A stretch of 64,000 bases of DNA from Nemertoderma westbladi (GCA_032718475.1 JAUCBJ010002291.1:1-64000); one strand, 5' to 3'. Shown: positions 2,453-43,699, numbered from the stretch's first letter. The notes: generated by a model from the sequence alone, not told the origin. Translations and numbers: made by a program.

Positions 2453-2574
2453 CTGGTGGCGTTTTCTGAGCCTCCTGACAAACGATCATGATCGAACTAA
2501 TACCATCAACTGGCAACTTAGAACCGTAGAATCCTGGTATCAATTTCTCATTGATACCAGTGTGACCAACACCA
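2453..2574 (-). CDS. Exon 4 of secreted beta/gamma-crystallin-domain host gene
   Basis: Acceptor ttttcccatttag, donor ccag|gtaagt; 122 nt, enters in phase 2 matching exon 3; reads (S)GVGHTGINEKLIPGFYGSKLPVDGISSIMIVCQEAQKTPP, completing the 4th crystallin motif. Confidence 0.8.
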
Positions 2575-2739
2575 CTAAATGGGAAAATAAAGTAGTAAAA
2601 AGTAAATTTACAATGACTAAGAATTTACTGTTGCATATTACTACTACTAGTCGTGTGAGCATGGTAAGTGGAATTTCGGTCTTTCTGGTTTTCCTGATTC
2701 TCAATGTTTGTCACAATTTCGCTTCCCCAAGTCCGGAAT

Positions 2740-3245
2740 CAATTTTCACATTTTTCTATATATTCCAATGTGAATCCAAGATCTTCTCCCTTTGTGGCCA
2801 TCATAATTGCGTAATCGAATACAATTTTGAATAGTAATGGAGCCAATATGTAACTTTGCAGTACTCTATCCTGGATTGAGAACAACTCAGTTTCACCATT
2901 TGAGTACCTGAGTTTCAGTGTCACAATGTAATGCCACCGACAATTACTTATGGTATTCTATAAGCTCAATATCTTATCTCTATGAATGGAGTCGAAAGCT
3001 TTCTTGAAATCAACGAATGTCAGAACTGCGGGAAAGTACTTTGACATAATTCCTTCAACCAGCCCCTGTAGTGCTCGCATTTGAGCCAACGCAGCAATTT
3101 CTCAATGTGATATCTAATTCTATATAGAATAATTTTGTTGTATATTTTGGCAGCTACCAAAAGTAAGCTGATCCCACGTTAGTTTGTTTGTATACCGAAG
3201 TCACCTTTCTTAGTTTTCCCTTTTCAGCATCTGGTTTAAACATCC
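2740..3245 (-). mobile_element. Decayed RTE LINE RT fragment
   Basis: Reverse complement aligns to ~14900-15480 of the full RTE copy (KKGD..., TFVDFKKAFDSI, GETELFSI..VLQ..LAP, TKGEDLGFTL). Confidence 0.8.
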
Positions 3246-4164
3246 AATAATGGTTTATTTAGCACTCCTGATTCACTGTTTCTAGAAGTAGTGTGTTCTC
3301 CAGTAATGGGTCCTCCAGTAATGAATGGGCACTCCATGCCTACAATTTGCCTTTATACCTATGCCAAAGTGCAAATGTACCAGTTCTATAATCGGGTAAG
3401 TTGTCCCTGTTATAACTGCATTTGCATTAAGCGATCAATTATATACAAATGGACCTTGTCGAGATGGTCTCAGTGTTCCTGGAATCCCCTCAGTGGTTAT
3501 ACGGTATATGGGTTTGACCAAAAACCCACCCGTAATGCTCGTCCCATAATTTACGTACTATTCAAAATGATAGAGTTTATCTTCTTCTTCCTTTTTAATT
3601 AGTTCAGTTAATAATATGTACTAATTAATTTACTGGTAAATAATATATTTTAATTATGGAAAACCAAACAGGATGCTAATCGGTTTTCGGCCAAATGGCC
3701 CCATTACAAATCATTGCATCCTCTCAGGGATTCTGTCCTAATTAGTTTACATCTTGAATAATATATTGTTCGTATATAAAACAAGATTGGATTTTCCTAT
3801 CTATCTATATTGCATCCTGATTGGTTAACCAAACTTTTCTAGCAATAAGGCACTCCCTACCGTGTGAACTAGGAAGCTATTTTTATTGGCTTGTTTCTAC
3901 ACGGTAACAGGTTCCCCCCTCAGCTTACTATTACATTGCCCTTCACCCGACCTTTTAATTACCACTCACCTCGTGTCATTACAATCTAACCATCACAGAT
4001 CAATACAGATTCCCCCCCTCTCTCTATCCCTCTCACACTCAATAACAAGACGCTCTCCCAACAATTTACACACCTATATCCCTCTCTGATGGTCACTGCC
4101 CTTCAATCCAAACAAGCTACAGCCCGTTAGGGATTCCTGATGAAATTATTGCAGCAATCAGATC

Positions 4165-5224
4165 AGTATACAATGGTTCGTACAACATTTGTGTCTACTG
4201 TTGACGGTGACACAGAACCATTTGAAGTTTTATGGGGTGTCCTCCAGGGAGAAACATTTGCACCATTCTTGTTCATAATTGTTGTTGACTATGTTCTACG
4301 CATGTCCTTAGATCATCATAATGATGATGGCGTGATGATAACTCCACCTACTGGCTCCAGAAGTCGAGGAAATCCTGCCAAGTACCTAACTGATCTAGAC
4401 TTTGCTGATGACTTAGGAGTACTCTCAGAATCACTAGAGGGAGCCCAACGGCTCCTCAGCTCATTAGAACATGCTGCTTCTAGTGTTGGTATTTTTATTA
4501 ACTCCAGAAAGACCAAAATTTTGACAGTTAACTTTGAAAGTCCTCAGCAAGTCTCTGATCGCATGAGCATAAGCTCAAAAGATGGTATGCTTGAGCATGT
4601 GGATGACTTCTGTTACCTGGGATCATGGATCCGGAAGTCAGGTGAGGACCTTCGAATACGTAAGGGAAAGGCATGGGCAGCCTTGAATAGGCTTTCCAGG
4701 ATTTGGAAGTCACCAAGAATTAATCGGACACTTAAGGTCCGATTATTTAGAGCAGCAGTAGTTCCAGTACTCCTCTATGGGAGTCCATGCTGGGCTCTAA
4801 CTGCTGAGGACACCAAATCTCTGGATGGCACATTCACAAGAATGCTACGCCGGGTTCATTGTGTCAAGTACAATGCACACATCTCCAACCAGACACTATA
4901 TAACATTGGAGGTGTCTCATTGGTTCCCCCAAGCTTCACACTAGAACAAAATCGCCTCTGCTTTGCAGGACATTGCTTTCGCTGTGAGGACCAACCAGCC
5001 AGTGCATAATCTTGTACTTTGGCAGCCTCATGGAGTGAATAAGCATGGTGGACAGACCATGACTTTCCTGAGACGCATCTTAAAGGACACTGGCCTTGAA
5101 GATGCGGATGATCTAGCAAATGTCATGGGTGATAGGGAGTTGTGGCGGTGCAATTTTGTCGATAAGCCGGCACAGCATTCTTAAAAGTGCAGCTGCAATG
5201 CAGCATGCCGATCCTAGTAGTAGC
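4165..5224 (+). mobile_element. 5'-truncated RTE LINE (second family), RT C-terminal half with (TAG)n tail
   Basis: ORF 4140-5009: GVLQGET.APFLF, DLDFADD, FCYLGS, LLYG; ends cctagtagtag; near-identical copy at 51967-52646. Confidence 0.88.
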
Positions 5225-5299
5225 TACAGCCCGTCATGCATGCCCTTATTAATAATTACATTATTAATGGATTTATCCTGCAACAGTCAGTTCCATTCC

Positions 5300-5660
5300 T
5301 AAAGGATCTAAACCACCTGATGTTAGAACCGTTGACATATCCAAGCACGGGTAGAAATGGAATTTTGACCTAGAACTAAAAGAAACTCTATAATAAGTAA
5401 CCCAACTGAGGAGGAATTTACCAGTCAGTACTCAAACAGCGATCAAGGTAATATAGGATAACTATATGAGGCTTAAGTCGGGACTATGGGACGAGGGTTG
5501 AAACAATGGTTCGAACTTGGGTTAAATTGGTCGAGATGCAGAGCAAAGCGAAATCTAAAATCGCTTTCCTCAATCAGTGCTTAAATGAAGGTATCATACC
5601 TCCTTTAAAGATGAGAGCGCCAGGAAATTTGTTAGCGCATTTGATAAAAAAAGACGTTCT
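5300..5660 (+). mobile_element. Possible Penelope-like element N-terminal fragment
   Basis: ORF 5506-5730 contains KIAFLNQCLNEGIIPPLKM, resembling the FLxxCxxxxIIP motif at the start of PLE ORFs; no RT or GIY-YIG seen. Confidence 0.35.
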
Positions 5661-7070
5661 TTCAATCTCAATTTCATATATTGTGACTCTTTCCTGCCGT
5701 TTAATAAAACACATGCAAAATGAATCCTAATTGCCCAGTCTGATACAATGAACGGGATGGCGCTAGTGTACCTTCAATGAAGGCCACTCAAGTGTATCGT
5801 TTTATTTCCCCTTTCTCCCATGATGTATTGATTTGCTCTATATTTGACTTAGTCTAATACGGTATTTGATCGTCTATTATATTTAACTGATACACAGTAC
5901 CGAGAGGGTGAGGCAAAACAGTATAACAAGCAAATATCTCACTAATTAATTATGTAAGGACTCAAGTCTGGTGACTGTGTTTCCCATTAGAGGAAACATA
6001 TTGTAACAAGTCTTTGGTCTAATTATATTGATATCACTACTTACAAGAGCTTTGCTTACAATAATGGTCTGAAATATCGCCATATATTAATTATTGATTA
6101 AGTTAGAGGTACGACGGCACATGTAATTCCTATACAATTGTCCAGATTATCATTAATGCTTAGTTATAGTGACCTACCTGGTTGTGGCGCATGTAAAACT
6201 TCCTTGATTCCGTAATATCGGCGATATATTAAGCAAATAATAATAACAAATTGAGTTTACTAGTAGAATATCAAATATAACAATAAGTAAATATAATTCA
6301 ATTATTAACAATGAATTTAGATTCAAATATTATACTTCAGACATATAATAATCACCAGTCATCAAAAACCTGACCAGTAATTAGTGTTCTGCATGTGCGA
6401 TGTAACTCCACAGCGGAAACAACATGCACAGAGTGAGTAAGCTATTCAACCAATCGTGCTTATATAACAGATTAACAATAATATAGCGACACAGCCATTG
6501 GGGTATTATTACAAGTTGGATATGTGGATAATGGCACTAGATGGCCTCAGATTCTTAGTAAAGCATGAATCAACTGAAAAATAACTGATATTATAACGCA
6601 ACCAACTTTATCAATAAAAATGGTGTTTTGAGTTTAAAATTAGTAAAATAAGTAATCTAAAATGGCCAAGTTCATACTTGCATCAATACCGCTTCCATTC
6701 ATTTAGCTAATACGGTTGTAAAAACGAAGGTATGAGCTCAAATCATACACAAAAGGATGTCTAGTATGTAAATAATTCAATTAACAACATCAAACTCAAA
6801 TTACATAGAACATATGTATCTAGCATATAAAATATCTCAACTCGTGAACAAATTATATCAAGTGAATTATTGAATATCTATTACTTCTAAACAAGCAAAC
6901 TGTAATGCTAAAGAGTATATCTAATGCATATATAAAATGTTTCAGCTCGTGAACAAATAAGCTAAATGAATTATTGGGGACACCACTTATTTTACATATA
7001 ATATAAAGTAGCGATATGAGTTTTATAAAGTAAAATAGTGGTAATAAAAAATAACCAGAAAAATCAATGT

Positions 7071-10000
7071 TTATTTCTGGGACTTTTTCTTTTTAGGGGC
7101 TGGCTTGCGGTGTTGCATTGGTGGAGAACCATTATCTGGTAACGAAGATGGGGAACTTCGCACTTGTAGCCCCTCAGCGGCGGAAGGATGAATTTCCAAA
7201 GAGTCAGGAGGGGGTGCAACAGTCGGCACGGTCAGTCCACCAGTGGACGTTCCTGGTTGAGGTTCGATAACCGTGGCTGCCGCAGGAACTGAATGACGTA
7301 ATAACTTCATACCCTTTCGGAGTATTTTAGCCAGTGAAGATTTAGCGGAAGAGGGCAATGTGGATTGCACCGCTTTCTTGAGGTGGTGGTGACCAGTCCT
7401 TTAAGGGTCTGTGATGAAATCGTGACACCTCCTCGATCCGAAACATACTTTAAAGGTTTGACTGTCTCTTCCACAAGACGTGAAGTACGTAATGCGATCC
7501 AAAGTTTGTAGTAACTCTGGATTGGCGGAGACGAATTCGTAACCAAGGTTGGGGTCCTTACAAATAAAGTCAATGAGGGTATAGGTGGTTAAATCACCAG
7601 GGTTCATGCAGCGAAGGAATGTGCACACATATTGAACATTGGTGAGCTTCGAAACCGTTAGTAATAACTGGTAATCGGGGAGGTTAGAGCGTTGCGCTTC
7701 AATCGCGAAGGTGTAGTGATTGAAGGCAAAGACTCCGCAGTAGGAGCAGGAAGATTCATAGCAAATACGCGTGATTTGGTGTAAATCCACGGAATGTTCC
7801 CACAATTTGATATACTTCAGTAGGGATGTTTCATCATCCCTTTGTGTCAAGTCAAAGGGGCAGGAGACCAGGTAGTGTCCTTTCAATAAACATTTATCAC
7901 ATTGTTCTGAAAATGATTATTGAACAGTCCACAATACGGACAATGAAGCGGTAGATCAGAGCATTGGGAGTATGTCAGACAAGTTTCACCGTTAGGTGGA
8001 GTTTTATGAGCACGGGATCCGCATTGGATACAGCACTTCCGACCTTGGGATACAGCAGAATGAAAGGCAAATCGCATTAGGCGCTGCGGTCCAAGGTGCC
8101 ATGGTATAACAAACTCACCATCGTCATCTAACTCGGAAGTGGGATGGACTGATTTAAATTCTAAGACATTGTCAACCGCGGAGTCGTTTAAATAGGAAGA
8201 CAGCTGTTTGTCTGACATTTGTACAATGGAAACTGAATAGCCAGAATTGAGGATGGGCCGCTCCAGAACAGTGGAGTGTGAGTTTTGGACATACACATCA
8301 CTGAATATAGCAAAACCCTTTCTGTTTAAGTCTTCAAAGGCAGACAAATGCTTATTTACCTGTCCCTTTAGAGTGGGGTCACGGAACTGGCTGTTGATAC
8401 CAAAGAAGGGGAATAAGAACCTTAGAAAACATTCGAAACGTTGGAATTTCCCTTCACGATTAACCTTGGCAAGCTGGGTGCTGAGAAGTAATGGGTGGGA
8501 CCTCAAAGTCCTACTACAAGTATCCCCTACAGTACAAGTATGTCCCAACCAACCTGATACGGCAGAGTTCTTGTATATCATGTAAATAGTGAGAGAAGGC
8601 CGAAGAGGGACACTAATATTGGAATAAACAGCACCGGGGGCGGTTAAAGGACCATTGAAATAATAACGGGAATAATTATCACCATATAAGTTTAAATAAC
8701 GATTATACCGACCTTCCTTGAAATCCCATCCGAGTTCATGGAATGAAATGTGTCTGATGCCGGTACGTTCAGCTCTACGCATCCCACTGCCTACGCGTTT
8801 GTAAATAACGCGGAAGAATCCACATTCCTGGGCCCACGGGAGGATCATTTGCGTGTCCACAAAGGGGTAAGGGATGTCTAGTAAGGAGTCAAAGTCCTTG
8901 TACAAGTCGGGATATATCGCTGAACCGAGATTGCAGATCCTCTCGTTAAATAACAGGTCGAGAATGGGTTGGGGCAACATTGAAGGTTCAATGCCGAGCG
9001 AAGGGTGATGCTTGGTTTCGATAACATATTGGTAGGACTTCTCGAATTGTCCGTGTCGAGGTAGCATCTCCTGAAAGAACAGAGGAGTGAAGGAGGCATC
9101 AGTGCTTTGGGAGGTTCGCATGAATACATGGGTGGCTCCGGTTAAACCATGGATATGTATTAATTTGTGGAACTGAGTTCGCTGTCCGATACGGAACCTT
9201 TGTTGTCATATAGCATTATGCCATATTGGTGGATAACCTCAAGAGTATTGTTAAACTCGAGGTACACGACAGTTTCATCCACTTCCACCAGCATCCATAA
9301 GCTATCCAGAGATCCAATGGAGCCTCGGGCGATAACTACCGTTTTATAGCTCTGGACATTCTCTACTCCGGATTTTCCTTTCAACGTGTTAGAGAGTTTA
9401 TCTTGCTGAAATCGTACGTTGATGTTCCATTGAATCAATCGATCACCAATAAAATTGTCGAGATTTCGAGAAGGCGCAAGTTTATCCTCAATGGTTTGTA
9501 TGTTGAAAGGTTAACGAAAGGCATTCAGTTTGATTATATGATCTAGGTGTTTCTGCAGGGGTTCGATTTCAGTGATGTCGAGGGGATTAACCAAAGGTAG
9601 GAAATCCATACTGCAGGCGGGATCCTCGGGTTTCATAACATAATGTTGACTGAATAAGATGAAATCCGGGTGGTCCTGAATCCCATAGAACAGTGGATGG
9701 AGAGGATGTCTTTCTAGGTTTTTGTCCCGAATTATTGACTTGATTTGGTCAGTTCGACCAAGGGGAGCGATAATCCACTCGTCAGTTTCAGGGCTTTACA
9801 ATGTGGGTTTCCAACATCGGAGCGTCTGCGACTAAGTTTGGGTAAGAGATGTCAGTGTCGAAAGGTATCGTTCGGGTTTGACTGTAAGCGACACCGAAAC
9901 GCTTTATAGACCCAGATGGGTGAGCCTGTACTTTACTTTGGAACCCTTCCATGAGAGTTTGGACTGCGGGTTGGACCAAAGAAGCTAGCTCGTGTTCGTC

Positions 10001-11212
10001 GTTTAAACATTCACACTCTGTCTGTTCCTCTTCCTCACGAATACGTTGGCTTTCTTTCAGAGCTTCCACAAGGGAGATAGCCTTTCCTCGTTTGATTTCC
10101 TCTTATAGGAGGCGGACTTCGGATACGAATTCCTGTAATATCATCCGACGAACAACATCGAGTTTACCGGAGAGTTTAATGGGGTCATCTACACTGATGG
10201 AGTTTCGAAGGGCGTTAAGGAACTCGGTAACCAAGTAGTTACGATTAACCGTAGAGGTCCTGGTGAAAGTGAGAGGAGAAGTCCACATGGATTCCTCGCA
10301 CTGTAGTGAGCTTCCACGACCGATACCAACCATAGAGGGTTGGAGATGGGTTGGCTCTTCCTCTTGGTAATGGGGAGCTATCTGTTCCTCCATAACGAGG
10401 TCTCGGAAATATAGGTACATGATTTGGAAAAGCTGGGGTCGGTCGGAGATAACGTCATGGGCTTCATCATGGGCAACATCGGGTCGGGGGAAAACTCAGG
10501 GACGTGAATCATGGGTTTACGCACCTTGTTCACCTGGTTCATCGACATTGAATCGATTCTCTTCAAACCCTCCGTATGTATACTTGACGAAGCTGTGGCG
10601 GGAGCATCACCTACGTGGATGATTCACAGGTATAGTTGAGACCTGTTGGTTGGGGTAAGGACATTGACCGCATAAGTACCAGAGCTGAAAGTCAGTTTTG
10701 TTCAGAGGTGGAGACTTTATACCTGACTTGCTATACTCCTATGTCGTGGAAGGCATCGGGGAGGACTGGGAGCGGATGATCCTCGGTGAGATACATCATG
10801 GTATGATAAGGATTCTCGGTGTCATCATCCACGATGTCAACACAAATTTGACAATCATATTGCGTTCGGGTCTCGTTACTACGTTGCCATTCAACGTGTA
10901 GTTTGAACATGTTCATGTCCCATGCTGGTCATCGATGTCCCTTAAGTCCATGGTAAGGAAGCTGTTATAACTTCCATCGCGCTCGGTATATTTGAGAATG
11001 AACTCATGGTATTGTTGTTCGATGTTGCGCTGTTCGTTCAGGGTTCATCAACAGTTCGATATAATTCCCTGAAGGATCTATACACGGTACCATGCTCTGA
11101 GCAGGCTCGGTGGATTCGCCGGTGAAATCAGCCATCATCGTATCCATCATCTCCGTGTGCTATTCCCGAGAACATGCTTGACAGATGGGGGTGTCTTCGT
11201 GTATCGAGACAT
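7071..11212 (-). pseudogene. Element C accessory gene (frameshifted): unknown N-domain + DEDDy 3'-5' exonuclease-like domain + Cys/His zinc cluster + basic tail
   Basis: Stacked minus ORFs 10731-10916, 10378-10566, 10103-10420, 9788-10069, 9160-9438, 7883-9121, 7401-7886, 7071-7370. ExoI-like YGIMLYDNKG; ExoII-like LPQPILDLLFNERICNLGSAIYPD...FVDTQ; CIQCGSRAH, CPYC, CDKCLLKGHYLVSC (across a frameshift); ends PKKKKSQK. Homologous to ORFs inside LTR elements A and B. Confidence 0.72.
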
Positions 11213-11229
11213 GTGCGAGTTTGAGTAGA

Positions 11230-11275
11230 AGAATGTATATAGGGGGTAGGCGAGCGTCACCTCCCCAAAGGCGCC
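11230..11275 (-). promoter_or_regulatory. Putative internal promoter of accessory gene C (GACGCTCGC + TATA)
   Basis: Minus strand TTGGGGAGGTGACGCTCGCCTACCCCCTATATAC directly upstream of the ORF; matches TTGGGGTAGGCAGCGACGCTCGCTAGCCTAATTATAAG upstream of the homologous ORF in element B. Confidence 0.5.
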
Positions 11276-11547
11276 GAGACACGCCGTGACGCAGTCCCTG
11301 GTCAATCCCTAGTGGCAAGAATCGAGTTTGCAACTAGCAGCGGTACCGAAATATCGTGGCTATATGCTAAACTCTCATCAAGCCAGGGAGACGGGGGACT
11401 GGCCAGGAGCCATATTTGGTCTGCTATAATCCTCGGATTTATGAAGGGTTGGACAATTGCGTACACCTTAAAACTCATACTATTTGTCGGTTTTCCACAC
11501 TATTTAGCAAAAAGTCACAAAAACTGACTATTTGTAAAAAGTCTGGA

Positions 11548-12475
11548 CTATTTGTAGGTGGGTTTTTTTGAGTGCCTGTTACAAGGTCACCATCTATGAG
11601 GGGTGTGACTCCCGCCATCCAATAAGCTGTGTAGGTGGGTTTTTTTGAGTGCCCATTACAAGGTCACCACTGTCTATGAGGGGTGTGCCACCCGCCACCC
11701 AATAAGCTGTGTAGGTGGGTTTTATTGAGTGCCCGTTAGAAGGTCACCACCGTCTATGAGGGGTGTGACACCTGCCATCCAATAAGCTGTGTACATGGGT
11801 TTTTTTGAGTGCCCATTACAAGGTCACCGTGTATGAGGGGTGAAGGCACCGTGTATGAGGGGTGTGACACCCACCATCCAATAAGCTGTGTAGGTGGGTT
11901 TTTTTGAGTGCCCGTTACAAGGTCACCGTCTATTAGGGGTGTGAAACCCGCCATCCAATAAGCTGTGTAGGTGGGTTTTTTGAGTGCCCGTTACAAGGTC
12001 ACTGTCTATGAGGGGTGTGACACCCGCCATCCAATAAGCAGTGTAGGTGGGTTTTTTTGAGTGCCCGTTACAAGGTCACCACCATCTATGAGGGGTGGGA
12101 CACCCACCATCCAATAAGCTGTGTAGGTGGGTTTTTTTGAGTGCCCATTACAAGGTCACCGTCTATGAGGGGTGTGACACCCTCCATCCAATAAGCTGTG
12201 TAGGTGGGTTTTTTTGAGTGCCCGTTACAAGGTCATCGCCTATGAGGGGTGTGACACCCACCATCCAATAAGCTGTGTAGGTGGGTTTTTTTGAGTGCCC
12301 GTTACAAGGTCACCACCGTCTATGAGGGGTGTGACACCCGCCATCAAATAAGCTGTGTAGGTGGGTTTTTTTGAGTGCCCGTTACAAGGTCACCACCATC
12401 TATGAGGGGTGTGACACCCGCCAAACTATAAGCTGTGTAGGTTGGTTTTTTTTGAGTGCCCATTACAAGGTCACT
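11548..12475. repeat. Minisatellite, ~12 copies of a 76-80 bp unit
   Basis: Unit GTAGGTGGG(T)nGAGTGCCCGTTACAAGGTCACCGTCTATGAGGGGTGTGACACCCGCCATCCAATAAGCTGT recurs at 11554, 11631, 11711 ... 12437. Confidence 0.95.
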
Positions 12476-12782: not shown

Positions 12783-12933
12783 TCTGCTACTTTCCACCAT
12801 CATTAATAATAAATACAACTTCAACTGGACTGCTTTCATTGCTTTCTCTACCGACTCCTCCTCCCTAAGGAAATCTAGACGCAACCCTCATAACTTCCAG
12901 CTGCCCTTCCTCCATAAGTCCACCTCTTAGCAA
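12783..12933 (+). repeat. Left copy of ~151 bp target-site duplication of the RTE
   Basis: Directly repeated at 16279-16429 with a handful of mismatches. Confidence 0.9.
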
Positions 12934-15900
12934 AAATTCATCAACTAAATAAGTTATTGAGGGCTATAGCGCCTAGGGCACCATTGAAGGCAAAGGCTTG
13001 ATATGCATCTGCATTAGAGATGATACAAGCCCTGCCCTGTCTATACTGGATGCTCCTCTACCAGTGTTAGGTAACCTAACCCAGGAGGCACACTTGGTTC
13101 AGGGTATAACAAAAGGACCCCTACAGTCGGCAGCAGGGCTGTAGGCCATGGATAGGCAGAAGGTAATCAACCAATGGCTAGACATGCTGACAAGGTTGGC
13201 GGAAGGTAATCAACCAACGGTGACCTGCTGCAAAGACGCTTGTAGGAGTTGCGACCACAAGCGGTTTACTCCCGCAACTGAAAGATATGAGTATGAGAAC
13301 CCTCCAGGAGAAATACCGGCTCGGTCGTCGCCCGGGTCAACAAGGACTGCATCCCTCAGTGGTACACCATCCTGGGGTCGATAAATTGGCTACTGGAAAA
13401 AAAGACAGAGAAGAAAGAAGAACCAACCTGTTGAAATGTAAAAAGACACTAAAGATTGCTACAATGAACGCACGCACGCTGAAAGCACGTACCAAACAGG
13501 GTGACATGGTCGCTCTGGCATTGGAATATCACATCGACATCATCTGCATCCAAGAACATCGGATTTGTCATGAAGACACTGCCATGAAGTACAATGACAT
13601 TGGAAATGGATGGACGTTAGTAACAAGCTCAGCAGTAAGAAACTCGGCCAATGCATCAATTGGTGGAGTAGGAATTCTGCTAAGCCCATTTGCACTTAAG
13701 ACCCTAAACAACATCGAATCTATAAATTCCAGGGTTATGATCGCAACATTTGATGGGAATCCCAAGACAACAGTTATATGTTGCTACAGTCCAACCAATG
13801 CCTCAGAGCCAGAACAAGCAGTCAAGTTTTATGAAGATCTGACTGGACTTGTTAAGGACATTCCGAAACACAATGTTAAAGTCATTGCTGGTGACTTGGA
13901 TGCGCAAATTGGCCCAGAAGACATCAAGGGTTACACCTATAACACCAGTTCTAACAGAAATGGGTACTTTCTTTTGGACCTAATGGAAGAATGTGAATTG
14001 ATACCAACAAACAACACATTCGAAAAGAGTAAGGGGAAGCTATGGACCTTTCAATACCCTAATGGAACCAAAGCACAACTGGATTACATCCTTATAAACA
14101 AAAAACAGCTCGTTCAACCTAATTGTTTGAACCACAGAATTGTGACTGCAGAGATTAGACTCAATTTAATAGCCAGCAAACCCAGGACAAGCAAGCAAAT
14201 CATCTATGACTGGGAGAAACTCAGAACTGACAATGCTGTAAAGGATGCTTATACAGTAGAAGTTCAAAAACGCTTTGAAGCACTTCAGTCAATGGATGAA
14301 GACCAATCCACTGATTCAATATACCAGAATATAATAACAGCCCACAAGGAATCAGCTAAGAGGCATATCCCCCAGAAACCCAAATGAAAACAGTATGTGC
14401 CATGGCAAAACTCTGAGGTACTTGTAAGAGAGAAGATCTTAAGATAGCCTACAAAGTTAAAACCGAACAACCAACAACCGAAAACATTAACAAGGTTGAG
14501 AAAGCTAAGGACGATCTTAAATTGGCCTACAAGATCAGCTAGGAAAAGTACATACGGATAAAACTGAAGCAATTACAACTGCTCACATACAGCAACAATC
14601 AAGACTTACCTGGCAAACTGTAAATGAGATATCTGGTCGGAAAAGTTGTGCAAAGGGGCGCCCCAAACCCAATAGTCCTGAAGAACGTGTTGGGAAGTGG
14701 AAAAATCACTTCAGCAACTTGCTTGGGCAGCCACCAAACATCGAGGTCAGCCCTACAAGGAAAATATATGACAAGACACTACCTATAGAAACAGGGGACT
14801 TCACACCTGCCGAACTCCAAAGAAGCATTAAAAGCATGTCCAATAATAAAGTGAGTGGATTAGATGAAATCCCAGCGGAGGGCTAAACAGACCATTATTG
14901 AATGTTTTGCATGTTAAAAGGGGAAAAGCCACCACCAATTTGGACTAAAGGTCAACTAAAGCCTCTCCCCAAGAAAGGAGACCTCGGCATACCAACAAAT
15001 TATTGTGGGATCTGTCTGCTTGTGGTAGCTGCCAAAATATAAAATAAAATGATTCTATATAGGATTAGGCCTCACATAGAGAAACTACTGTGTAAGAGCC
15101 AAAACGGATTTCGACCAAGTAGATCAACAATAGCTCAGATACTTGCACTACGGAGACTGATTGAAGGAATTAAGTCAAAGAATCTCCCCGCAGTCATGAC
15201 TTTTGTGGACTTCAAGAAGGCATTCGACTCCATCAAATAGAGGTAAAATGCTTGAAATCCTAAGAGCTTATGGAATACCAGAAGTAATTGTTGCTGGCAT
15301 TGGATTGTTATATTGTGACACAGAAGCGCAGGTACTCTCACCAGATGGTGAAACTGAGTTTTTCTCAATCCTGGCTGGCGTACTGCAAGGTGACACATTA
15401 GCACCATTACTATAATTGTGCTGGATTATGCAATGAGGACAGCCACAAAGGGTGAAGATCTGGGATTCACACTTCAAGAACGCAGAAGTAGTAGATATCC
15501 GGCAACTACAGTCACAGACACCAACTTTACGGATGACATCGCCCTGCTCTCTAATACACTAGCAGATGCACAGCTTCTACTAAATAAAGTGGAGAGGGCT
15601 GCTAAGGAGGTTGGATTGCATATAAATGCTACCAAGACCGAATTCATGACCTTTACTGTTGATGGAAACTTGACAACCATTGATAATAATCAACTAAGGA
15701 AGGTTGATGACTTCCAGTACCTTGGATCATGGATAGAGAGTAGCAAAAAGGACGTAGAAGTTAGGAAAGCAAAGGCTTGGGTAGCTCTATCAAAAATGGA
15801 TACCATCTGGAAATCAGATCTCTCCAGGCACCTGAAGACTAAGTTCTTTCGAGCCACGGTGGAAAGTGTATTTTTATACGGGGGTGAGACCTGGACACTG

Positions 15901-16278
15901 ACTAAATCACTTGAATAACGAATTGATGGTTGCTACGTAAGACTACTAAGGGCAGCCCTAAACATCAGCTGGAGACAACACATGACAAACGCCGAGATTT
16001 ATGGTACAATACCACCTGTATCAACCACCCTCCGTGAATGCAGATTAAGATTCAGTGGGCACTGCTGGCGAAGTAAAGACGAGGTCATACCAGATCTACT
16101 TCTCTGGCAACCAACTCATGGAAAGCGTAGTCGTGGACGACCAGCCATAACATATATAGAGCAACTTGAAAGGGATACTGAACTTAGTAGAAACGAAATT
16201 GCGACAACTATGGAGAATCGGGAAGCCTGGAAGGATCTCATCTCCACTGTCCGAGTTCGCTCGACCCAGTAGTAGTAG
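12934..16278 (+). mobile_element. Full-length RTE-clade LINE (APE + RT), inactivated by stops and frameshifts
   Basis: APE motifs in ORF 13287-14387 (IATMNART, IQEHR, GGVG, CYSPT, AGDL, LDYIL); RT motifs QNGFR, FVDFKKAFDSI, GVLQGDTLAP, FTDD, YLGS; C-terminal GKRSRGRP; (AGT)n tail; ~3.3 kb. Confidence 0.93.
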
Positions 16279-16429
16279 TCTGCTACTTTCCGCCATCATT
16301 AATAATAAATACAACTTCAACTGGACTCCTTTCATTGGCTTCTCTACCGACACCTCCTCCCTAAGGAAATCTAGACGCAACCCTCATAACTCCCAGCTGC
16401 CTTTCTTCCGTAAGTCCACCTCTTAGCAA
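16279..16429 (+). repeat. Right copy of ~151 bp target-site duplication of the RTE
   Basis: Starts immediately after the (AGT)n tail; matches 12783-12933. Confidence 0.9.
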
Positions 16430-17214
16430 CATTTCTGGTACTGATCTCACCGGCTAGCCAACCTACTACCACATGAAGTCTACTTCACATGACATACAGG
16501 ACACAGCGATCTGTACTGGAACTTCTTCGTCTCCACTTATATGGAACGGAACCCCTGCACCTGGAGAATTTGATACATGTGTACAGCATGCTCAGCCAAA
16601 CCACCAGACCTCCGACAGCATCTTAACTGACAGCACCTTGATATCTTGACAGCACTTCAACTCAAAGTTGTATATTTACGGGCCCTTAAAACCCTTTAGC
16701 TTGTGCTGTAAATTTATATATATTATTATGATTATTATAATGTAGCAAGACCTAAACTCAAGAATCTAAAGCAAGCAAAGCATAGACAACACTGTTTTCA
16801 TCTGTTATTATTGTTATAAACAATGTCGTTTTTATCCGGAATCATGGCTGTCAACTTCATAGCATATCCACCACCACCCACCGTGATCCCACCAATAACC
16901 TGCTGCTCTGTTTTTTTGGAGCAACTGGAGTAACTCCGCCTATTCATTGGTGAGAAGATTCGTTCCTGGTGTATTTTGTGTTGTCATTAATTTTCCAAAG
17001 GCTTCCCGATCTATATGGGTAAGGAGGACTGCAATGTCAAACTGAGTTTGTTAGCTGCAGCTTGTTCGCTTGTTTTGTCATCGATTGTCATCGATTGTTT
17101 TGTGAGTTTAGCTGGTCACTGGTCACTAATTTAGAGATAGAAAAAGACACTCAAATTTAATGAGAGATAGTAATATTAATGAATGGAAGATTCTTTTAGT
17201 CTCATTAAGCCAAG

Positions 17215-17799: not shown

Positions 17800-19080
17800 T
17801 AAAATTATTTAATCCATTAAATTCAGAACGGCCACAAACCTCTGAAATTAGAGAAATAAGTTCTCACAAACCTTTAAATTATTGAATAGATTTTCAAAAT
17901 TTCGTGATAGCACCAAATTTTGCACACAGCACCGAAAAATACAAGTTTGATACGCTTGGTGCAACTCGTATATATTCTATCGAAACCAGAACCCATAAAA
18001 ACCCCTATTGCTCAAATAACAGGTTCAAAAAAACTTCTCAATATTTTTGAAAACCATTTTTAGTATTAGGAAGACAATAGATATTTAGGAATAGTTATAA
18101 AATTTCAGATTCCCAACTGCGTTTGTTTCAGAGTTTTAACAAAAAACCACCAATATTGACCCCCCAGGGGGGTTAATAGGGTTAAGGAATAAAATTTTAC
18201 ATCGGAGAACATAATAAAAAATCTGATGAAAAAAAAGACAAAGAGTAACCCCCCCCCCCCCCCCCCCGGGTTACTCTTTGTCTTTTTTTCATCAGATTTT
18301 ATTTAATGTGTTTTCCGATGTAAAATTTTATGGTGATTCCGAATCTGAAATCAGTTTTTCGGAATCAGTTGTTCAAATCGTTCAAAATCTGTTTGCGTTT
18401 TTTTGAAGCTCCTGGTGTCGCCAACAACGTACGATACTGCGAGATTTTTTTTTTTAATTATATCAAAAGTTACAGCATTTAAAACATCAAAATGCTAAAA
18501 TTACCCGAATTTTGAAAATACTAGAATTTTTAGGATATTTTGATATTTTAAATGCTGTAACTTTTGATAAAATTAAAAAAAAATAAATACGGTAGTATCG
18601 TTTGTTGGCGACACCTAGAGCTTTGATAAAACGCAAACATAATTAAAATCAGTAAAAAATTACGGAACTAGTTTCCCTACTAGTTCCGTAATTTTATGTA
18701 AAAAAAAAGATAAACCGAGAAAAACGTGTTTTAAATTTCCTTCTAATTAATTACAACTGTCCAAACATGCAACAAAAGTGAATTTTTTTTAAATTTTTCA
18801 AAAATTATCTTTTTTTGCAGTTTTGATACCTATAGGCTAATTTTTGGCGCTGCTTCCGAAAATGGCAAAATATTTCGACATTTCTGGGTGTTTATTGGTC
18901 TTTTTTGGTGTCAAAAAATTTAAATTAAAAATTTTCAAATTTTTGATGAAAATTACAAAAGTTGCTATAACTCGAGAACTAAACAACTTATCGAAAAACT
19001 GATTTCAGATTCGGAATCACCATAAAACATCGCAAAACATATTAAAAAAAAATCTGATGAAAAAAAGACAAGGGGTCAAC
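17800..19080. mobile_element. Non-autonomous DNA-transposon/MITE-like fragments with nested inverted repeats
   Basis: Inverted pairs 18190-18250/18268-18330, 18271-18362/18990-19075, 18392-18500/18540-18640; TTAACCCTATT end (minus) at 18175-18185; 17880-18030 matches 51060-51230. Confidence 0.6.
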
Positions 19081-19713
19081 CGTGACGGGATCCACCGGAG
19101 TTGGCAGTAATGAATTCCGACCGGTGTGTGTTATACGCGTCGCCGCATCCGTAGGCTGCTAAAGGTGTAGTCTGGATCTATATAGTTTCCCGAAGGCCGT
19201 TCAAATAACTGAGTTTTACTGTCAGTGTTTATAATCGCAGAATGCAATAATAGCACAGTCTGAATATAATAGCACAGTAGTGACGACGGTTAAAACTGTT
19301 CCGGTCTCACAACTGCATAGGACCCAACTGAACCAGTAATCAATAACTGCAATGGTTATATTATTATTAACACATACTAAATTAGCTCTACACTACTGAG
19401 TGGCCTGAGTGTCCAATAGATGCGCTCTAATCACTCCCAATGTGCTCTCCCACCCACCATTGGCTTAACCTGATTAATTGTCACCTCGCCACTCAATGTT
19501 GCCACTATCCCCACGTGCTAGCCTTACTAGCCTGTTTGTCCCTCTAAGGTGGTTTGACCTCTCAACTCTCCCTGTGGCTTATTACGGCGTATATCGCCTT
19601 AGTTGGTTGTGAGGTGACAATATTATTGCTAATGTCACCTCGCCAACTATAATTGGTAAAATGCTACTAATCCCATTTTCGGTGGGTAGTGCAGGGAATT
19701 GAATCCGCTTACA
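19081..19713 (-). repeat. 3' LTR of element A
   Basis: Direct repeat of 29961-30586; begins TGTAAGCGG on the minus strand right after the PPT. Confidence 0.92.
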
Positions 19714-20402
19714 CTCCCCTCCATGATATATTCCCGGTGAGAAGATAGCATCAACCTTAAGTGCGCTTCAATTCCACCGGAATCCAATCTAATATTGGAT
19801 GTGGGGTGGAATTCTCTTCTCAGGGTTGGCTTTCCAGGTCGGCCCCCATGGGTTTGTTATCACTACCCATCCTTGGCACACCTGCGAGCTAGGCTGTACC
19901 AAGGCATCTGGCATCTCTGTTTTAATCGATTGCCCTCACTCCTCACACAATTTTACCTCTCGGACTTTGTTGTCCCTTCCTCTCTCGCCAGTCCCTTGGG
20001 ACTCATCCCCCTCTATGCTCGCTCCCCACACTTGAATCTCGCACCTCTTTTACTTCTTCATACCCTAACACCTCCTCCCCATACTCCTCCCATACTCGAC
20101 CCGTTTTCGCTGTCACTCTCCTCACACTCTTATCGGGTCCCACGCATGTGTACAGCATGTCAGTGAGATCCGTCGTTGTCCCGTCCTCCTGTTTCAGTCA
20201 ATTAGTCGCCAGTCCCAGTAGCTAATTGGAAAAGGTTATATTCGACTATGATAGGTCTATACTGATTATATATTGGGTATGTATATTGATTATTTTACGT
20301 ACGTACATACTAATTGCACTTAATTAAATTGCACTTAGGAGTTTGTACTGCTGCGTCCATGTGGTGCCTTCCAGGCACATTGACATCCCCTGTCTTGGAG
20401 TT

Positions 20403-23002
20403 CTACATTGCTCCTCCCGCACCCTCCGGGAACCATCTAATTTCCTTGCCCCTATCATCATCCTGTCTGGACCGCTTCCTCCCTTCCTGTTTACCCTTGA
20501 GGATACTCATCCTCGCTGATACCATCTTACCAAGCCCCATTGTTGGTTCTTTGGGTGTGGGTGTTATTAAGTCCTGGTATCTCTTCGAAGGTGGTCCCAC
20601 TGAGTGTCCCTCCTGTCTCCCTCTGGTAGCGTCCCACAAGATCATCTTCATCGCACGCGGCATGTGTTCCCCCAGAAAGTCCCTGAATTCGATCCTATTT
20701 TCTGTCCAGATATCTTTGGGTATGGATGACCCCTCTGTACAATGTCGCTGTTGCTACCTCCTGATACGTGAATGGTAGTCTCCTCTTGGTGATCTGCTGG
20801 TGGGCTTCTATATTGATGTTGAAGAAACCCCACCGGAATTACTGGGCCATCATCCTTTGTCGTGTCATGACTCCGATGTCGGCCCACACCTCGAAAATCT
20901 GGAATTTCTCCTCATCGTCCATCCTCAAAGTGCCCTCTAAACTTGCACTTCAAACATCTGTTGTGCAACCTCGGACACGCACCCTTCTTGTGAGTAGACT
21001 CGTGGCAGTAAAGACACGCCATCCCCTTCAGGAAACGGTATAGATAGTTCTTTTGCTGATGGGTTAATCTCCCACAGCAATCGCAACCGTGCATCATTGT
21101 CTCCCGCCCCAAGTCATCCTTGGCTCCGCGTGGCCTCCTGGGTCTATGGAGCCGCTGGTAGGTAAACATCTGGATGTTGTCTTCTCTATCCATGTCGATA
21201 TCCTATGCCAACCTCGGCATCGTTTCTCCAAACACTATTCATGGTGCCGTCCCCGGCTGCTCACCCAGTCTCTGGTACTCGCCGCAAAGTCCATGGCCGG
21301 CTCCCTGTGCTCCCAGGTCCTCTTACCGGGTTTCTCCCAGAAGGCTCTCGCCCCGGTGGCCGTCACCACTCTCCCATCCACCCAGTCTGTGTCTGAGTGG
21401 CCGATCCTTGCTATCGGTGGCATAGACCCGAACTCGTCATCTTCTTCTTCCCCTGCCGGGGGCGCAATCCCCTCTATCGGTGGCATCCCACGAACTCGTC
21501 CTCTTCCTCTTCCCCTGCCGGAGCGTATCCAAACCCAGGAGCCCAGTTAATCCACTGTGTAAGGGACACAGTGGATTAACTGGTATCCGCCCATAGCCTT
21601 TCACCCTTCTACCTCCCTCGGTCTCTTCCTTCTGATGTCACCCTCAGAGCCTGCTGGCATGGGCATTCTTTACAACCCCGATGTTGACTGTGTCGGTGTC
21701 TCTTACATCCAACCCATCGTCCCCCAGCCAAAACTCGTCCGAGGTCTCCGACAACCCATCGTCTAAGTCCTGGGCTTCGAACTCATACTCCTCTCCCCTT
21801 ATATCCGCTTCTCTGCCCGCTGCCTCCCTTCTCTCTCTCCTGGCGACTTCCACTAGTCTCCTCTCCTCAACCCTATCCACCTCCAGTTTCCTCCATGTGT
21901 CTACCTCTCTGTCCACTAGATGTCAGGTATTGTAATATACCGACTCGCCCTTCAGCCCTGGGTGGTCTACAAGACCTTCTAGGGCCACCTTAAAGGCTCT
22001 CCTGTGATTCGGAGGTGCTCCTGATAGTAGAAACGCCGTCGGCTCCCTGCCCATAAATAGTCACCATAATGAATAGGTTTAATAAATCTATGATTATCCA
22101 ATCCTCCTGTAGGATATATCTCTTCTGATATATCTTTATCGCTCCCTTCCGGAAGTGGTATAGTTTCTCCTTTCCTGGTCTCGCTCCCCACTTGAGCGAG
22201 TTCGCAAGTTCTGCTCCATATTCTTCCCGGAACTTGTTCCAGTCCATCGGCTTGTGGCAGACGAGTCCCATCAGTTTTCCCATTGCCACGGCTCCGCTAT
22301 TTCCCGTGTTGTCCACCAATCCCAATCCCTCTGGTTTTGTCATAGCCATGTAGACTACCTGCATGTCCAGAAGATTGGAGGTTCCAGGTCCAATAATTCT
22401 ATCCGCGTCGTTGCGTATCGCCGATCCCACCTTGATCATAGTTTTCTGTCTCACTAGCTCCTGCACCGCCTTCAGTAACCGGTTTAACTTCGGCCCGCTT
22501 TTCTTTCTGTAGGTCCCTAGGTCGAATAGAAAAATATCTCCGTTCGGCACTGCTAAGTGCAGCAATATAGTTCTACCTGATCCTCCCGACCCCCTTCTCG
22601 AGCCCTCGTCATCCTCCACAGTCCCTTCGTCGTTTAGGACCATGTATCCACCCCTCTCCACAGAATTTACAAATCGCCTCCACTCCTTAAACGGTGGTTC
22701 CCTCGGTAATTTGGTATCCCGAACTTTGCCTCGTCCCCCTTTACAACGTAGCGAAGATGCTCGTCGATCGCGTTGTCCAATGACGGTGTCCTGTAGGTCC
22801 CGACCATTCGCCGCTCGTGCATCTCCCTAAACTGATCCTGTAGCGCGTGCACTTTGTGACCCTTTGGGAGTGGTTTGTAGTATCCCTTCGTCTTTTTTTC
22901 CGGATGCCTCTGCATGAAATCCACTAGCAACTCCTTCCTACTCTTCTCCGATTTCCTCTTCTTCACTAGTTTCACCGCCATCACGAATCTGCACACTCTC
23001 AC
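20403..23002 (-). pseudogene. Element A accessory gene (frameshifted): DEDDy 3'-5' exonuclease-like domain, acidic linker, Cys/His zinc cluster
   Basis: GGYMVLNDEG (ExoI-like), ILLHLAVPNGDIFLFDL, VQELVRQKTMIKVGSAIRND...LLDMQ (ExoII), YQKRYILQED (ExoIII-like); then CDCCGRLTH...CLYCHESTHKKGACPRLHNRCLKCKFRGH...FEVWADIGVMTR. Lies between pol remnant and 3' LTR, same strand as gag. Confidence 0.75.
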
Positions 23003-23382
23003 CTAACTGGTGGGGCCTTAGAAAGGCTCAGTTTAAGTAAGAGGGTCGTCAAACAGAATGTTATTAGTTCCGATCAGTGATGGCCTACCTCCTTTGCTGT
23101 GTTTTCCTGTAATTTCGTACAAAATTGCATTTCTAAATTTACAATTTTGTCCATTGCTTTTTATTAATGATTCTAGAATTCATTCCCCAGTTGCCATAAT
23201 TTGTTAATTTTTACTATTATTTATATTCCCCCTTACATGTGCTATTATACTATCTGCCATCTGATTACTTACTTAAGTAACCCATCCCAGTAACAGTTTT
23301 CTTATTACCGTACTAGCTTCATACCAGACAGTTTCCTGGCTCTGTAACAATAACCTAGGTCTGCAGGGGCTAGCAGGCAACC

Positions 23383-23905
23383 TAGGCGCCCTCAGTGCCC
23401 ACAAGTTTATGGTACTGTGTACCCCTCTACTATGGTATGCATACATACCCCCTCTCAATTCCTCACGTGGCGCCCTCAGTGCCCACAAGTTTACGGTACT
23501 GTATAACCCTCTATTACGTTATGCATACCCCCCCTCAATTCCTCACATGGCGCCCTCAGTGCCCACAAGTTTACAGTACTATGTACCCCTCAACTACGGT
23601 ATGCGTACATACCCCCCCTCAACTCCTCACATGGCACCCTCAGTGCCCACAAGTTTACGGTACTGTGTACCTCTCAACTATGGTATGCGTACATACCCCC
23701 CTCAACTCCTCACGTGTCACCCTCAGTGCCTACAAGTTTATGGTACTGTGTATCCTTCTATTACGGTATGCGTACATACCCCCACTCAACTCCTCATGTG
23801 GTGCCCTCAGTGCCCAGAAGTTTATGGTAATGTACCCTTCTGCTATGGTATGCGTACATACCCCCCCTCAACTCCTCACGTGGTGCCCTCAGTGCCCACA
23901 AGTAC
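23383..23905. repeat. Tandem array, ~6 copies of ~83 bp, inside element A
   Basis: CTCAGTGCCC(ACAAG) recurs at ~23391, 23476, 23556, 23639, 23723, 23806, 23888. Confidence 0.93.
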
Positions 23906-24061
23906 TGCGTATGTAAATTAGGTATGTTGGTACATTATTGTACCCATCTGATGTATGTAATTGTAACTACATATACCTATTTATTATATACGTTGGTACA
24001 TCCGTACCCATCAGATGTACATAATGCCTACCTGCAGCGTACCTTGGTACTAGCGTTTTAC

Positions 24062-25700
24062 TTATTTTATTTTATTATTTTGTTTTTGTGGGAAGGGTGT
24101 ATCTCCCTCATTCCCACCCCCCTCAGTCCATCTTATTGGACGACTCAACAACCTAAGGGCGATTCTTCCAGCAGGCAACTCTCCCACTGCCCCCCTGTAG
24201 GTCCTAGGTCCTCTTATTCTTCGCCCCACTCTCCTTTTCGATTTCAAATCTCTTGGATCTGACTTTCCTTTCTCCTCCATCCTAAAATCGGGTCCGTCAC
24301 CTCACTGATCTCATCATGGTCCCCTGGCAGCAAAATGCTACCCTTCATCTTGTCGTCACTTGGTGGTAGAATGCCGCCCTTCATGTCATCCTCACTGGTA
24401 CATGCCACCTTTGCTGGCCTCCCCCTCAATATGTGCGCCGGCGTTAAAGCCCCCGATGACCCTTGGTAATCCTTCGGTACGCATAATGGTTTACCATTTA
24501 ATGCCCCCTCGCACTCTGCCAGCCCCATGTGCAACACGTCTCCTCTAACTTTCCTATCTCCATTACCACCCTTCATTATTAGCTCCTCTCCCTTTGGATT
24601 AACCCTCTTACATCCTCCCCCTCTCCACCTTGTCTTCTTATTCGACCTCCTCTCTATCGGTATGCTTCTTAATTAGACCAGCGTCTCTTCCAGACATCTC
24701 TCTGGATATCTCGCCATCCACTCTTCTCCATCCTCATACCGATACTTGCCAGGAACATCTATCTCCCATCCCATCGCCTCTAGGTCCTGTGCGTTGAACC
24801 CATTCTCCTCCGCCCACTCCCTTGCTGTGACTTGTCGTCCTGTCTCCTCTACCAACAGTACTTCTCTGGATTCATCCTCCACCCTTTCCACTATACGTGG
24901 ATGCAGATCCATACCCATCCCTGACTCCTGGTGTCCTTCCCCGGGCTGCTTCTCATATGGGACCTCCCCATCACCCATCTTTGACTTCTGCTCGGGCCAC
25001 TTCCCATATAGGACCTCCCCATCGCCCGTCTTTGACTTCTGTTCAGGCTGTTTCCCATATGGGACCTCCCCATCGCCCATCTTTGGTTTCTGCTCTATGT
25101 CCTCAACAGTACCGGACAGCATGCATCCAGATGTTTCGGATACGCCAAACGGTGTCCTCGTCTTCATTGGGCCAGTGAGCATCCACCCAAATGGCGCGAG
25201 AATGGCCATCGGGTCTCTCTCTCTGTCATCGCTGAAAATGGTTTGTAGTCTCTCGTGGGCCGTCGGACAGTCCATGCTGACTATTAGAGACACTTTTGGG
25301 ACATCCAGTTCCGGTACGGAAAAGTCGATGTCTTCCAGGTACTTGTATTGCTCAATCTCGATCTTCGTAGGTCACCTGGCGTTAATGTTGATTGACTCTA
25401 TTATCTGAATGGTTTCGATTGTAGCCCCATAGGTGCACCCTGGCTTTATCGCTGCAATCTCGCATCGTCCCCTCCTCATCTTCATGACCTCATCTTTGCT
25501 TGAGATCGTGGTCACTGCTATTTTACTTGGCCTGGTTCGTAATCCTATCTTCTCGCCACCCAACTCTCTGTTAGCGTGAATGCTGCTCCACTATCGACCA
25601 ACATTAGTGTTGTAACCGATAGCTCATTCTCCCCTATTATTCTCACTGGTACCACTCCAAGTAGTACCATTCCCCTCTTCTTTGCTCCCATTGTGCTTGT
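24062..25700 (-). pseudogene. pol: Element A collapsed pol: aspartic protease + integrase C-terminal remnant, RT/RNase H absent
   Basis: VVPVRI...LMLVDSGAAFTL; LIVSMDCP...AILAPFGWMLTGP; LAECEGALNGKPL...LTPAHILRG; LPAGRIAL. No RT or RNase H motifs between them. Confidence 0.75.
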
Positions 25701-28700: not shown

Positions 28701-29866
28701 CCCTCAACCGGGTATGCATATCATCCCCCATTCGTTTACCCGCCCTCTCTCTCTCTCTCTCTCCTCTCTAACACTCTGGTCGGCTAACTCTGCCTCTCTC
28801 GCCTCTCGTTCTCTACGCTCGTTCACTTCTCTCTCAATCCTCTCAGCTTTCCTCGCTTCCCACTCTTTGCGCTCATTCTCTTCTCTCTCAATCCTCTCAG
28901 CTTTCCTTGCTTCCTGCTCTCTGCGCGTGTTCTCTCCCCTCGCCTCTTGTTCTTTGCGCTCACTCAATTCTCTCTCCTCCCGCTCTCTGTAGTTTCTCGC
29001 CACCCTCTCGGCCCTCTCTTTACACTCTTTCGCTAGTTCCCTCTCCCTCTCTAGTAACGCGGTCCCCTCATCCAGCTGTCTCTCTAATTCCTTTTGATCC
29101 AGTGCGACAATGTCTAGTTGACACGCCAGATCTATCTCTAACACCCTTCTTGCTTTCGCAGAGGATGTAGCGGACTTTTCGGTTGCGACGCACTCCCGTC
29201 GCCTGCTCATCCTACTAATTTTCATGTGCTTACTGGGATTCCTACTAACTGACGACACTGAATCTTCGGGGTTGACCTCGGATTCGGTGTCGTGCGGGTC
29301 TGCCCATCCCACTAACTTAATCCCCCTCGCATCTACTAGATAAGGCCATACGTACACCACACTGGCCTCCACCACCTCGGATCGCCACAATTCGAACAGT
29401 TCTGTGGCGACCCCCCTCGTCTTCTCACTTGCTAGTTCCCCCTACCCAAATCGGACTAGGTAGCTAAAATGTTTTTTGCACTCACCTAGCCTCTGGTACA
29501 ACTTGGGCTGGTCTACCTTTCTTCCCTCTCTAGCGTCCTTCAACAACCTCCTGGTGGCAGTGTACCCTCGTTGTAGGTGATCGCTCATCCCGACGTCTTC
29601 CTCCTGGACTTGGCCTTCCCTCCTCGTCCAGCGCCGTACCGTTAGCCCCACCATTGCCGTTCCGGTGGGCCGTTCGCCGCCCTCAGCCACTGGTTGACTG
29701 GTGACTTTGGTACCTCGTTTGCCGCTGTGATCTCGCATCGACTCGCTCTCCTCTCTTCCTCGTCCCTTGTTGGCGAATCCAGTATGGCGGGCCGGTACTG
29801 CCTCGTCGCTGCTTCCCGAATCGTCTCATTTCTGTCACTCGGGATTCGCATCTTGTGTCCGCTCAT
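25700..29866 (-). pseudogene. gag: Element A gag, fragmented
   Basis: E/R-rich coiled coil (28704-29390), Asn- and Gly-rich low-complexity tracts, BEL motif FLNYEVELITDPVYS (25946-26260), degenerate knuckles CQLH.../LCH*CAVGGHRKDEC. Confidence 0.72.
26295..26830. mobile_element. AT-rich DNA-repeat fragment inside element A gag
   Basis: Sharp GC drop; AAAATTTGGTGCTGG...AAATTTT...CGAAAA motif shared with the 50590-51290 repeat family. Confidence 0.6.
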
Positions 29867-29960
29867 GTTGGCGTCATTGTGGTCACAGTTCCTTTAGGTT
29901 GTTGGGTTGTTGGTAGTTTTAACTCGGCAGTTTTAACTGTGAGTTGATTGGCGTTTTAAC

Positions 29961-30586
29961 TGTGACGGGATCCACTGGAGTTGGCAGTAATGAATCTCGA
30001 CCGGTGTGTGTTATACACATCACCGCGTAGGCTGCTAAAGGTGTAGTCTGGATCTATATAGTAGGCCGAAGGCTGTTCAAATAACTGAGTTTTACTGTCA
30101 GTGTTTATAATCGCAGAACATAATAATAGCACAGTCTGAATATAATAGCACGGTAGTGACGACGGTTAAAACTGTTCCGGTCTGACAACTGTATAGGAAC
30201 CAACTGAACTAGTAATCAATAACTGCAACGGTTATATTATTATTAACACATACTAAATTAGCTCTACACTACTGAGTGGCCTGAGTGTCCAATAGATGCG
30301 CTCTAATCACTCCCAATGTTCTCTCCCACTCACCATTAGCTTAACCTGATTAATTGTCACCTCGCCACTCCCTGTTGCCACTATTCCCACGTGCTAGCCT
30401 TACTAGCCAGTTTGTCCCTCTGAGGTGGTTTGACCTCTCAACTCTCCCTGTGGCATACGGCGTATATCGCCTTAGTTGGTTGTGAGGTGACATTATTATT
30501 GCTATTGTCACCTCGCCAACTATAATTGGTAAAATGCCACTAATCCCATTTTCGGTGGGTAGTGCAGGGAATTGAATCCGCTTACA
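29961..30586 (-). repeat. 5' LTR of element A
   Basis: Minus strand TGTAAGC...CGTCACA; direct repeat of 19081-19713; gag starts ~100 nt downstream. Confidence 0.92.
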
Positions 30587-42310: not shown

Positions 42311-42345
42311 TATTAATAAACTCATATATAGCAGATATAACGGAG

Positions 42346-43623: not shown

Positions 43624-43699
43624 TGTTTAGAGTATCTTTATATTTTAGAAACTGTGATTTTTATATTTTATAGACTAAAATCCCATTTTCTGGGAGCGG

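Follow-up and report, generated by a model that had tools for sequence, protein, structure and literature searches.

The question raised by this locus is what manner of gene, carried by what manner of mobile element, lies behind a long and interrupted coding span in the genome of Nemertoderma westbladi. We refer to the span and its element as C, and compare them with two further elements, A and D, in the same 64,000 nt stretch of DNA (the window), which is rich in repeats and of animal type. The sequence evidence makes it probable that C is an extra gene occupying the env slot of a BEL/Pao-derived retrotransposon family, with a predicted nuclear, RNA-binding 3'-5' exonuclease bearing zinc knuckles as its product.

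The C coding span lies on the minus strand. It opens with an ATG at 11212 and closes, after the terminal residues PAPKKKKSQK, with a stop at 7071-7073, in agreement with the initial annotation, which had described a coding span of about 4.1 kb ending in PKKKK. Its longest uninterrupted piece (7883-9205) encodes 440 aa. Along the complete reading path, which was chosen by hand across the breaks, the frame shifts around nine times and no fewer than five in-frame stops are crossed (10915, 10609, 10105, 9513 and 7403). C is a genuine but broken gene, and the present copy is dead. An N-terminal region of ~400 codons (9976-11212), itself broken, is followed by a linker (9178-9795, in-frame stop at 9513) that includes the motif LDNFIGDRL (9462) and an ExoI-like strand, YGIMLYDNKG (9225-9196). 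A frame break is found at ~9164-9187, and contigs from other copies depart from the window sequence at 9163-9187. Next come a DEDDy-like 3'-5' exonuclease core (8600-9172), with ExoII (ICNLGSAIYPD...FVDTQ) and ExoIII-like (PLTAPGAVYSNIS) segments, and three Cys/His knuckle-like motifs (7860-8035, with a frame break near 7920), the third of which is a canonical CCHC knuckle with a weak match to Pfam zf-CCHC_3 (E 0.15). The C-terminal region (7071-7859) contains WEHSVDLHQITR (7802), the stop at 7403, a Pro/Ser-rich tail and the basic PKKKK end, which may act as a nuclear signal. An env-like role for C was rejected, since none of the six pieces tested has a transmembrane-like segment (top 19-residue hydropathy 1.26).

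C is present in three DNA runs from two studies; no RNA run is listed as containing it. In one run, 1127 contigs fall on 5250-11540. Of these, 791 are less than 95% alike, and unique contigs that match the window exactly occur as well: the C family is a dispersed multi-copy repeat. Internally deleted relatives are also seen among the contigs: each of the three runs shows joints at 7223-7580, 9549-10353 and 10607-11297, and a single run shows one at 7914-10983. The differences between copies were examined in the exonuclease region, using the best-supported 40 of 95 rows from assembled contigs. Thirty-seven of these lie within the open frame. Synonymous third-position changes make up 24 of the 37, whereas changes of these types would be expected to give 12.2 (p ~7e-5); read in either alternative frame, just 8/37 and 7/37 would be synonymous. 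Two rows that fall in the upstream frame each replace a residue conservatively, and a row at the frame break was excluded from the synonymous count; among nine additional rows, five are synonymous. Because the differences between copies are mostly synonymous, the protein of the C family was under purifying selection, and the signal is clear for a sample that is partial and contig-based. Purifying selection had been proposed earlier from the comparison of A with C; support for it comes instead from the synonymous excess among C's own copies.

Whilst the initial annotation saw no LTR belonging to C, an element end is in fact present at 5630, and we define a putative 3' LTR at 5630-6982 on the minus strand, with a well-supported outer end and an uncertain inner end at 6982 or 6996. 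Thirteen contigs have mixed loose ends before 5630, summed depth is 55 outside this position as against 2573-4743 at 5670-6089, and a unique contig terminates at 5659. On the minus strand the element ends in GCGCTAACA, resembling GCGCGAACA at the LTR ends of D, and a short purine-rich word precedes the TG at 6982, an inner end that is not itself fixed. The likeness of the putative LTR to that of D is not significant (6/60 shuffles reach the score) and there is no second copy of the LTR-like end in the window. Within the putative LTR, a 48-bp repeat with units ~105 bases apart lies at 6825-6976; one unit is skipped in other copies. On the other side of the ORF lies a 77-80 bp tandem array (11553-12474), a putative member of the element, positioned like an 84 bp array in A with units not significantly alike. 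Neither this array nor the upstream region of C has significant similarity to its counterparts in D or A. No gag or pol of C is found in the window (upstream tiles score 35-47, which is background), as the earlier description had also noted. Beyond 12474 the 5' part of the element (gag-pol and 5' LTR) is missing and LINE fragments are found instead. These fragments, with endonuclease and reverse transcriptase (13224-15918), bound C on its upstream side. To either side of them lies a 157-bp copy of a different LINE-like end (12783-12939 and 16279-16435, 93%).

The strongest link found between C and a recognisable carrier is to element D, and is absent from the initial annotation. Frameshift-aware alignment shows homology between the first third of C and the accessory gene at 42.3-43.6 kb in D: C 11078-9994 and D 42445-43468 are 29% identical over 329 codons, with a score of 145 where the highest among 100 shuffles is 64. 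When the D ORF is used as query against 148 window tiles, two C tiles come out on top (145 and 104), the next scoring 60. Identity per codon position is 0.42/0.54/0.33, and tblastx against the window gives collinear C matches at 42.5-43.4 kb; a further tblastx match at 44129, lying inside the LTR of D, was rejected as chance. The link is missed by blastn and visible in a sensitive DNA alignment (130, as against at most 86 in 60 shuffles), for which reason a description of the C–D similarity as protein-only was dropped. The two open pieces of the C N-terminal region that were tested have no Pfam matches.

Element D occupies 33527-44839 on the plus strand and comprises an LTR pair, a BEL-type gag-protease (37022-40667) and a broken accessory ORF (~42300-43622), in sense orientation directly before the 3' LTR. 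Its LTRs differ at 5/1139 aligned sites, start with TG and end with CA, and are accompanied by a 5-bp target duplication, ATATT. The gag matches Pfam DUF1759 (E 1.1e-10), with knuckles and protease alongside; no reverse transcriptase or integrase was found, and the interval 40667-42289 has no ORF as long as 100 aa. By these sequence features, D is a young, non-autonomous LTR element of BEL type. Near-identical LTRs in an element without pol, and with a badly disrupted accessory ORF, make it likely that D was mobilised in trans not long ago. D sits within a 28-bp satellite, and an 88-bp stretch in its gag-upstream ORF (38521-38608) is 92% alike to one at the window start (4-91).

Because the C element is cut off, with gag and pol absent in the window, its BEL origin has to be approached through D. 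The initial annotation had drawn such an origin from homology to A and to another element, B; a BEL-type LTR origin is supported, but by way of D. The missing gag, pol and LTR pair might also have been read as signs of a processed host pseudogene, or of a member of a non-LTR or DNA transposon family. We consider this highly improbable: the family has many diverged copies with a synonymous excess, a sharp end of the TG/CA type with mixed flanks at 5630 and a homologue within the LTR element D, and no poly(A) follows the C stop.

The D ORF has a stop right after its C-like region and lacks the exonuclease part. It could accordingly be argued that the 4.1 kb comprise two adjoining genes: a D-like N-terminal ORF that ends at ~9800, followed by an independent ORF for the exonuclease and knuckles, like that of A, which is without such an N-terminal part. 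Two stops and a frame change do lie at ~9800, at the point where the D homologue stops. The C copy contains many further breaks, however, so that one more proves nothing, and there is no spacer between the two parts. D itself may have arisen by deletion: its tail is similar to that of C, but 62/300 shuffles reach that score. On balance we consider two genes unlikely, and their existence would in any case be compatible with an accessory gene of BEL/Pao descent.

The third element, A (19078-30586, minus strand), has an LTR pair differing at 32/629 sites, a broken gag-protease and an accessory exonuclease-knuckle ORF (~22981-20500). It too looks non-autonomous, because no reverse transcriptase is present between its protease and an integrase-like C-terminal motif ~1 kb apart from it. 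A BEL-type gag is thus shown in D and recognised by motif in A, and all three accessory copies in the window (A, C and D) are broken. An inverted relative of the A gag-protease region is found at 59063-60910 (77% over 1946 bases), and nested inverted repeats at 18189-19082 and 53107-57838 resemble non-autonomous DNA transposons.

Is the central domain of C an exonuclease? Cellular PF01612 exonucleases include WRN-exo, EXD1, EXD2, Mut-7/Nibbler and RNase D, and share an ExoII helix-strand signature with A and C, although the likeness is too low for a Pfam match or a tree. We built DEDDy profiles from bacterial PF01612 domains, in sets of 20 sequences, 11 WRN-like sequences and 43 sequences. With the 20-sequence profile, A scores 9.0 bits and C 5.7-6.0 bits, neither score being reached in 500 shuffles, and the top four of 1104 six-frame window tiles are the exonuclease regions of A (two) and C (two). 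With the WRN-like profile, A scores 9.7 bits (0/500 shuffles) and C just 0.3-0.5 bits (reached by 2 and 6 of 500), outside the top 8 window tiles; with the 43-sequence profile, one unrelated tile outranks C, falling between the A and C tiles. Comparison by hhalign gives 30.7 for C, where the best of 40 shuffles reaches 21.9, and 27.7 against 17.3 for A, with low probabilities in both cases (6-51% for C). The profile match is weak in both A and C and is confined to the ExoII helix and strand.

Database searches add support for A: in the ESM Atlas, 25 of 30 matches to A 21993-22826 belong to the PF01612 cluster set. C has no match there, nor any Pfam exonuclease, PHROGs or PDB-sequence match. 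Its 7886-9205 piece has no homologue in a 5.8-billion set (longer proteins only) or among 1.84 billion representatives, and C has none among phages, viral contigs or metagenome contigs. Homologue searches of sequence collections with the A exonuclease piece were likewise empty; these collections contain little animal repeat sequence, which makes the blanks for A and C weakly informative. Pfam detected neither an HRDC or helicase domain nor Mut7-C, and single-sequence models reached pLDDT 32 and 38, the A model having no Foldseek match. A DnaQ-like/DEDDy fold is weakly shown, for the ExoII stretch of C only, and we consider a DnaQ-like domain likely to be present.

The catalytic residues allow of more than one reading. 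The ExoII aspartate is in place in both C and A. By-eye placement in these copies gives each of them one of the two acids of the ExoI D-x-E, and for the ExoIII Y-x3-D gives a tyrosine without the acid in C and Y-x3-E-D in A. The exonuclease domain of the C family might accordingly have lost catalysis and serve to bind RNA or a partner, in the manner of EXD1/Maelstrom, with selection acting on binding. C scores below A on most of the DEDDy profiles, and the family differences (the best-supported 40 of 95) miss the codons of the missing acids. Yet the copy is a decayed one, that sample of differences is partial, the ExoII aspartate and ExoIII tyrosine are retained, and ExoI and ExoIII were placed by eye. 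We are inclined to doubt a purely binding role; like the two-gene arrangement, it is compatible with a BEL/Pao accessory gene related to exonucleases and neither excludes it.

How C is related to A bears on whether such genes form one family. As had been noted earlier, there is no evident DNA similarity (no blastn match of at least 60 nt), and the listed protein motifs occur at their reported places and in identical order in the two elements. Four patterns, LDN.I...L (C 9462, A 22780), GSAI..D (8932, 22433), C.KC..[KR]GH (7901, 20956) and [FW]E...D....TR (7802, 20895), each have just two occurrences in the six window frames, one in A and one in C, and CxxCGxxxH and CxYC occur 6 and 13 times; the patterns were composed after viewing both sequences, so that these counts constitute no test. 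The first and third knuckles are 131 nt apart in C and 129 nt apart in A.

Alignment does not bear out a relationship. Single-frame local alignment of A and C gives z -0.7, and frameshift-aware alignment scores 45 where shuffles average 46 (39/60 of them do as well) and, in another result, 40 where they average 43. When read-throughs with the breaks marked as X are aligned in chains, between 1 and 76 of 150 shuffles attain the score, a reversed control scoring higher in 4/5 settings, and with four A motif regions as queries against ~310 window tiles C is never first (best ranks 60, 65, 15 and 8). The knuckle cluster and tail, a region picked post hoc, give a marginal result, with between 15 and 77 of 2000 shuffles reaching the score. 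An odd control, C against the opposite strand of A, scores above shuffles (77 and 160), which may reflect the C/T-rich composition common to both. The initial annotation had named a non-significant A–C alignment as grounds for refutation; no significant one was obtained with single sequences, and its statement that the pair show a conserved family is too strong, although kinship between them is probable.

A and C might instead be separately captured exonuclease-plus-knuckle genes whose common motifs are generic DEDDy/CCHC features. No alignment setup is significant, the distance from ExoII to the first knuckle differs (300 vs 449 codons between C and A), the coding strand is 20% G in C and 33% in A, and rotifer elements have acquired such ORFs at least twice, according to PMC5408684. 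The A exonuclease ORF begins only ~110 residues before ExoI and the first third of C has its counterpart in D; the architectures of A and C therefore differ. Set against this, LDN.I...L and [FW]E...D....TR lie outside the generic cores, occur in the same order and are, within the window, unique to A and C (a post hoc observation), knuckle spacing is nearly equal, and both genes occupy the same place in BEL-like elements that share a genome. We consider separate capture rather improbable, and a common origin of A and C the probable explanation.

If C is indeed such an accessory gene, how might its product have served the element? In active ancestors, the C-family protein would enter the nucleus by means of its basic tail, bind RNA through its knuckles and trim or shield RNA 3' ends in trans. 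Our preference, a tentative one, is for a counter-silencing role exerted on small-RNA guides or precursors; a role in processing the element's own RNA or cDNA ends seems doubtful. Counter-silencing is favoured because reverse transcription is assumed to be cytoplasmic and because the nearest animal enzymes of the DEDDy class act in small-RNA pathways. For BEL/Pao elements, reverse transcription is assumed to occur within cytoplasmic particles (PMC8742986), and Mut-7, EXD1 and Maelstrom are raised in the rotifer study (PMC5408684). On the question of why some LTR retrotransposons bear a 3'-5' exonuclease third gene, the rotifer study reports no sign of selection within the genome. The synonymous excess in the C exonuclease region argues that the cargo benefited the element. 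If A, C and D share a single accessory gene, then it is old and modular and resides in BEL/Pao elements. One could go further and imagine an old BEL/Pao lineage carrying a modular nuclear anti-silencing protein in place of env, made up of an undescribed ~400-residue domain, a DEDDy nuclease and three knuckles, selected in A, C and D as three deeply diverged families within a single animal genome and with modules lost family by family; this full scenario is speculative and, as a whole, unlikely.

Nematode Cer elements are said, in work attributed to Malik et al. in 2000, to include an accessory, possibly exonuclease-like, ORF. Keyword searches of the literature (Repbase being outside their scope) found no report of an exonuclease third gene in BEL/Pao. 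The word exonuclease has 0 occurrences in the accessible portion of PMC3118150, and the accessible portions of PMC6338049 and PMC11662393 hold nothing bearing on BEL exonucleases. D matches the Belpaoviridae (PMC8742986) in its LTR pair, the purine-rich tract before its 3' LTR, its DUF1759 gag, knuckles and protease, whereas reverse transcriptase is absent in both D and A, and C is the 3' part only. Belpaoviridae occasionally have a third gene in the same position (PMC8742986; PMC3118150); there it is env-like, and in C it is not.

The closest known parallel is with the DEDDy (RNase D-like) exonuclease ORF3 of the Juno and Vesta LTR retrotransposons of bdelloid rotifers and of Terminons, as described in PMC5408684 and PMC6431247. 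The ORF3 elements belong to rotifer lineages, whereas the carriers in the window have a BEL-type gag (shown in D, by motif in A), and C adds to what is described for ORF3 a 400-codon N-terminal region, three knuckles and a basic tail. Rotifer ORF3 has intact catalytic residues and does not depart from neutrality within the genome (PMC5408684); the C copies, by contrast, are broken, with a synonymous excess in the family. An exonuclease ORF3 cargo has thus already been described in rotifer LTR elements, and C is best regarded as a variant on this theme, set apart by its BEL setting and its N-terminal domain.
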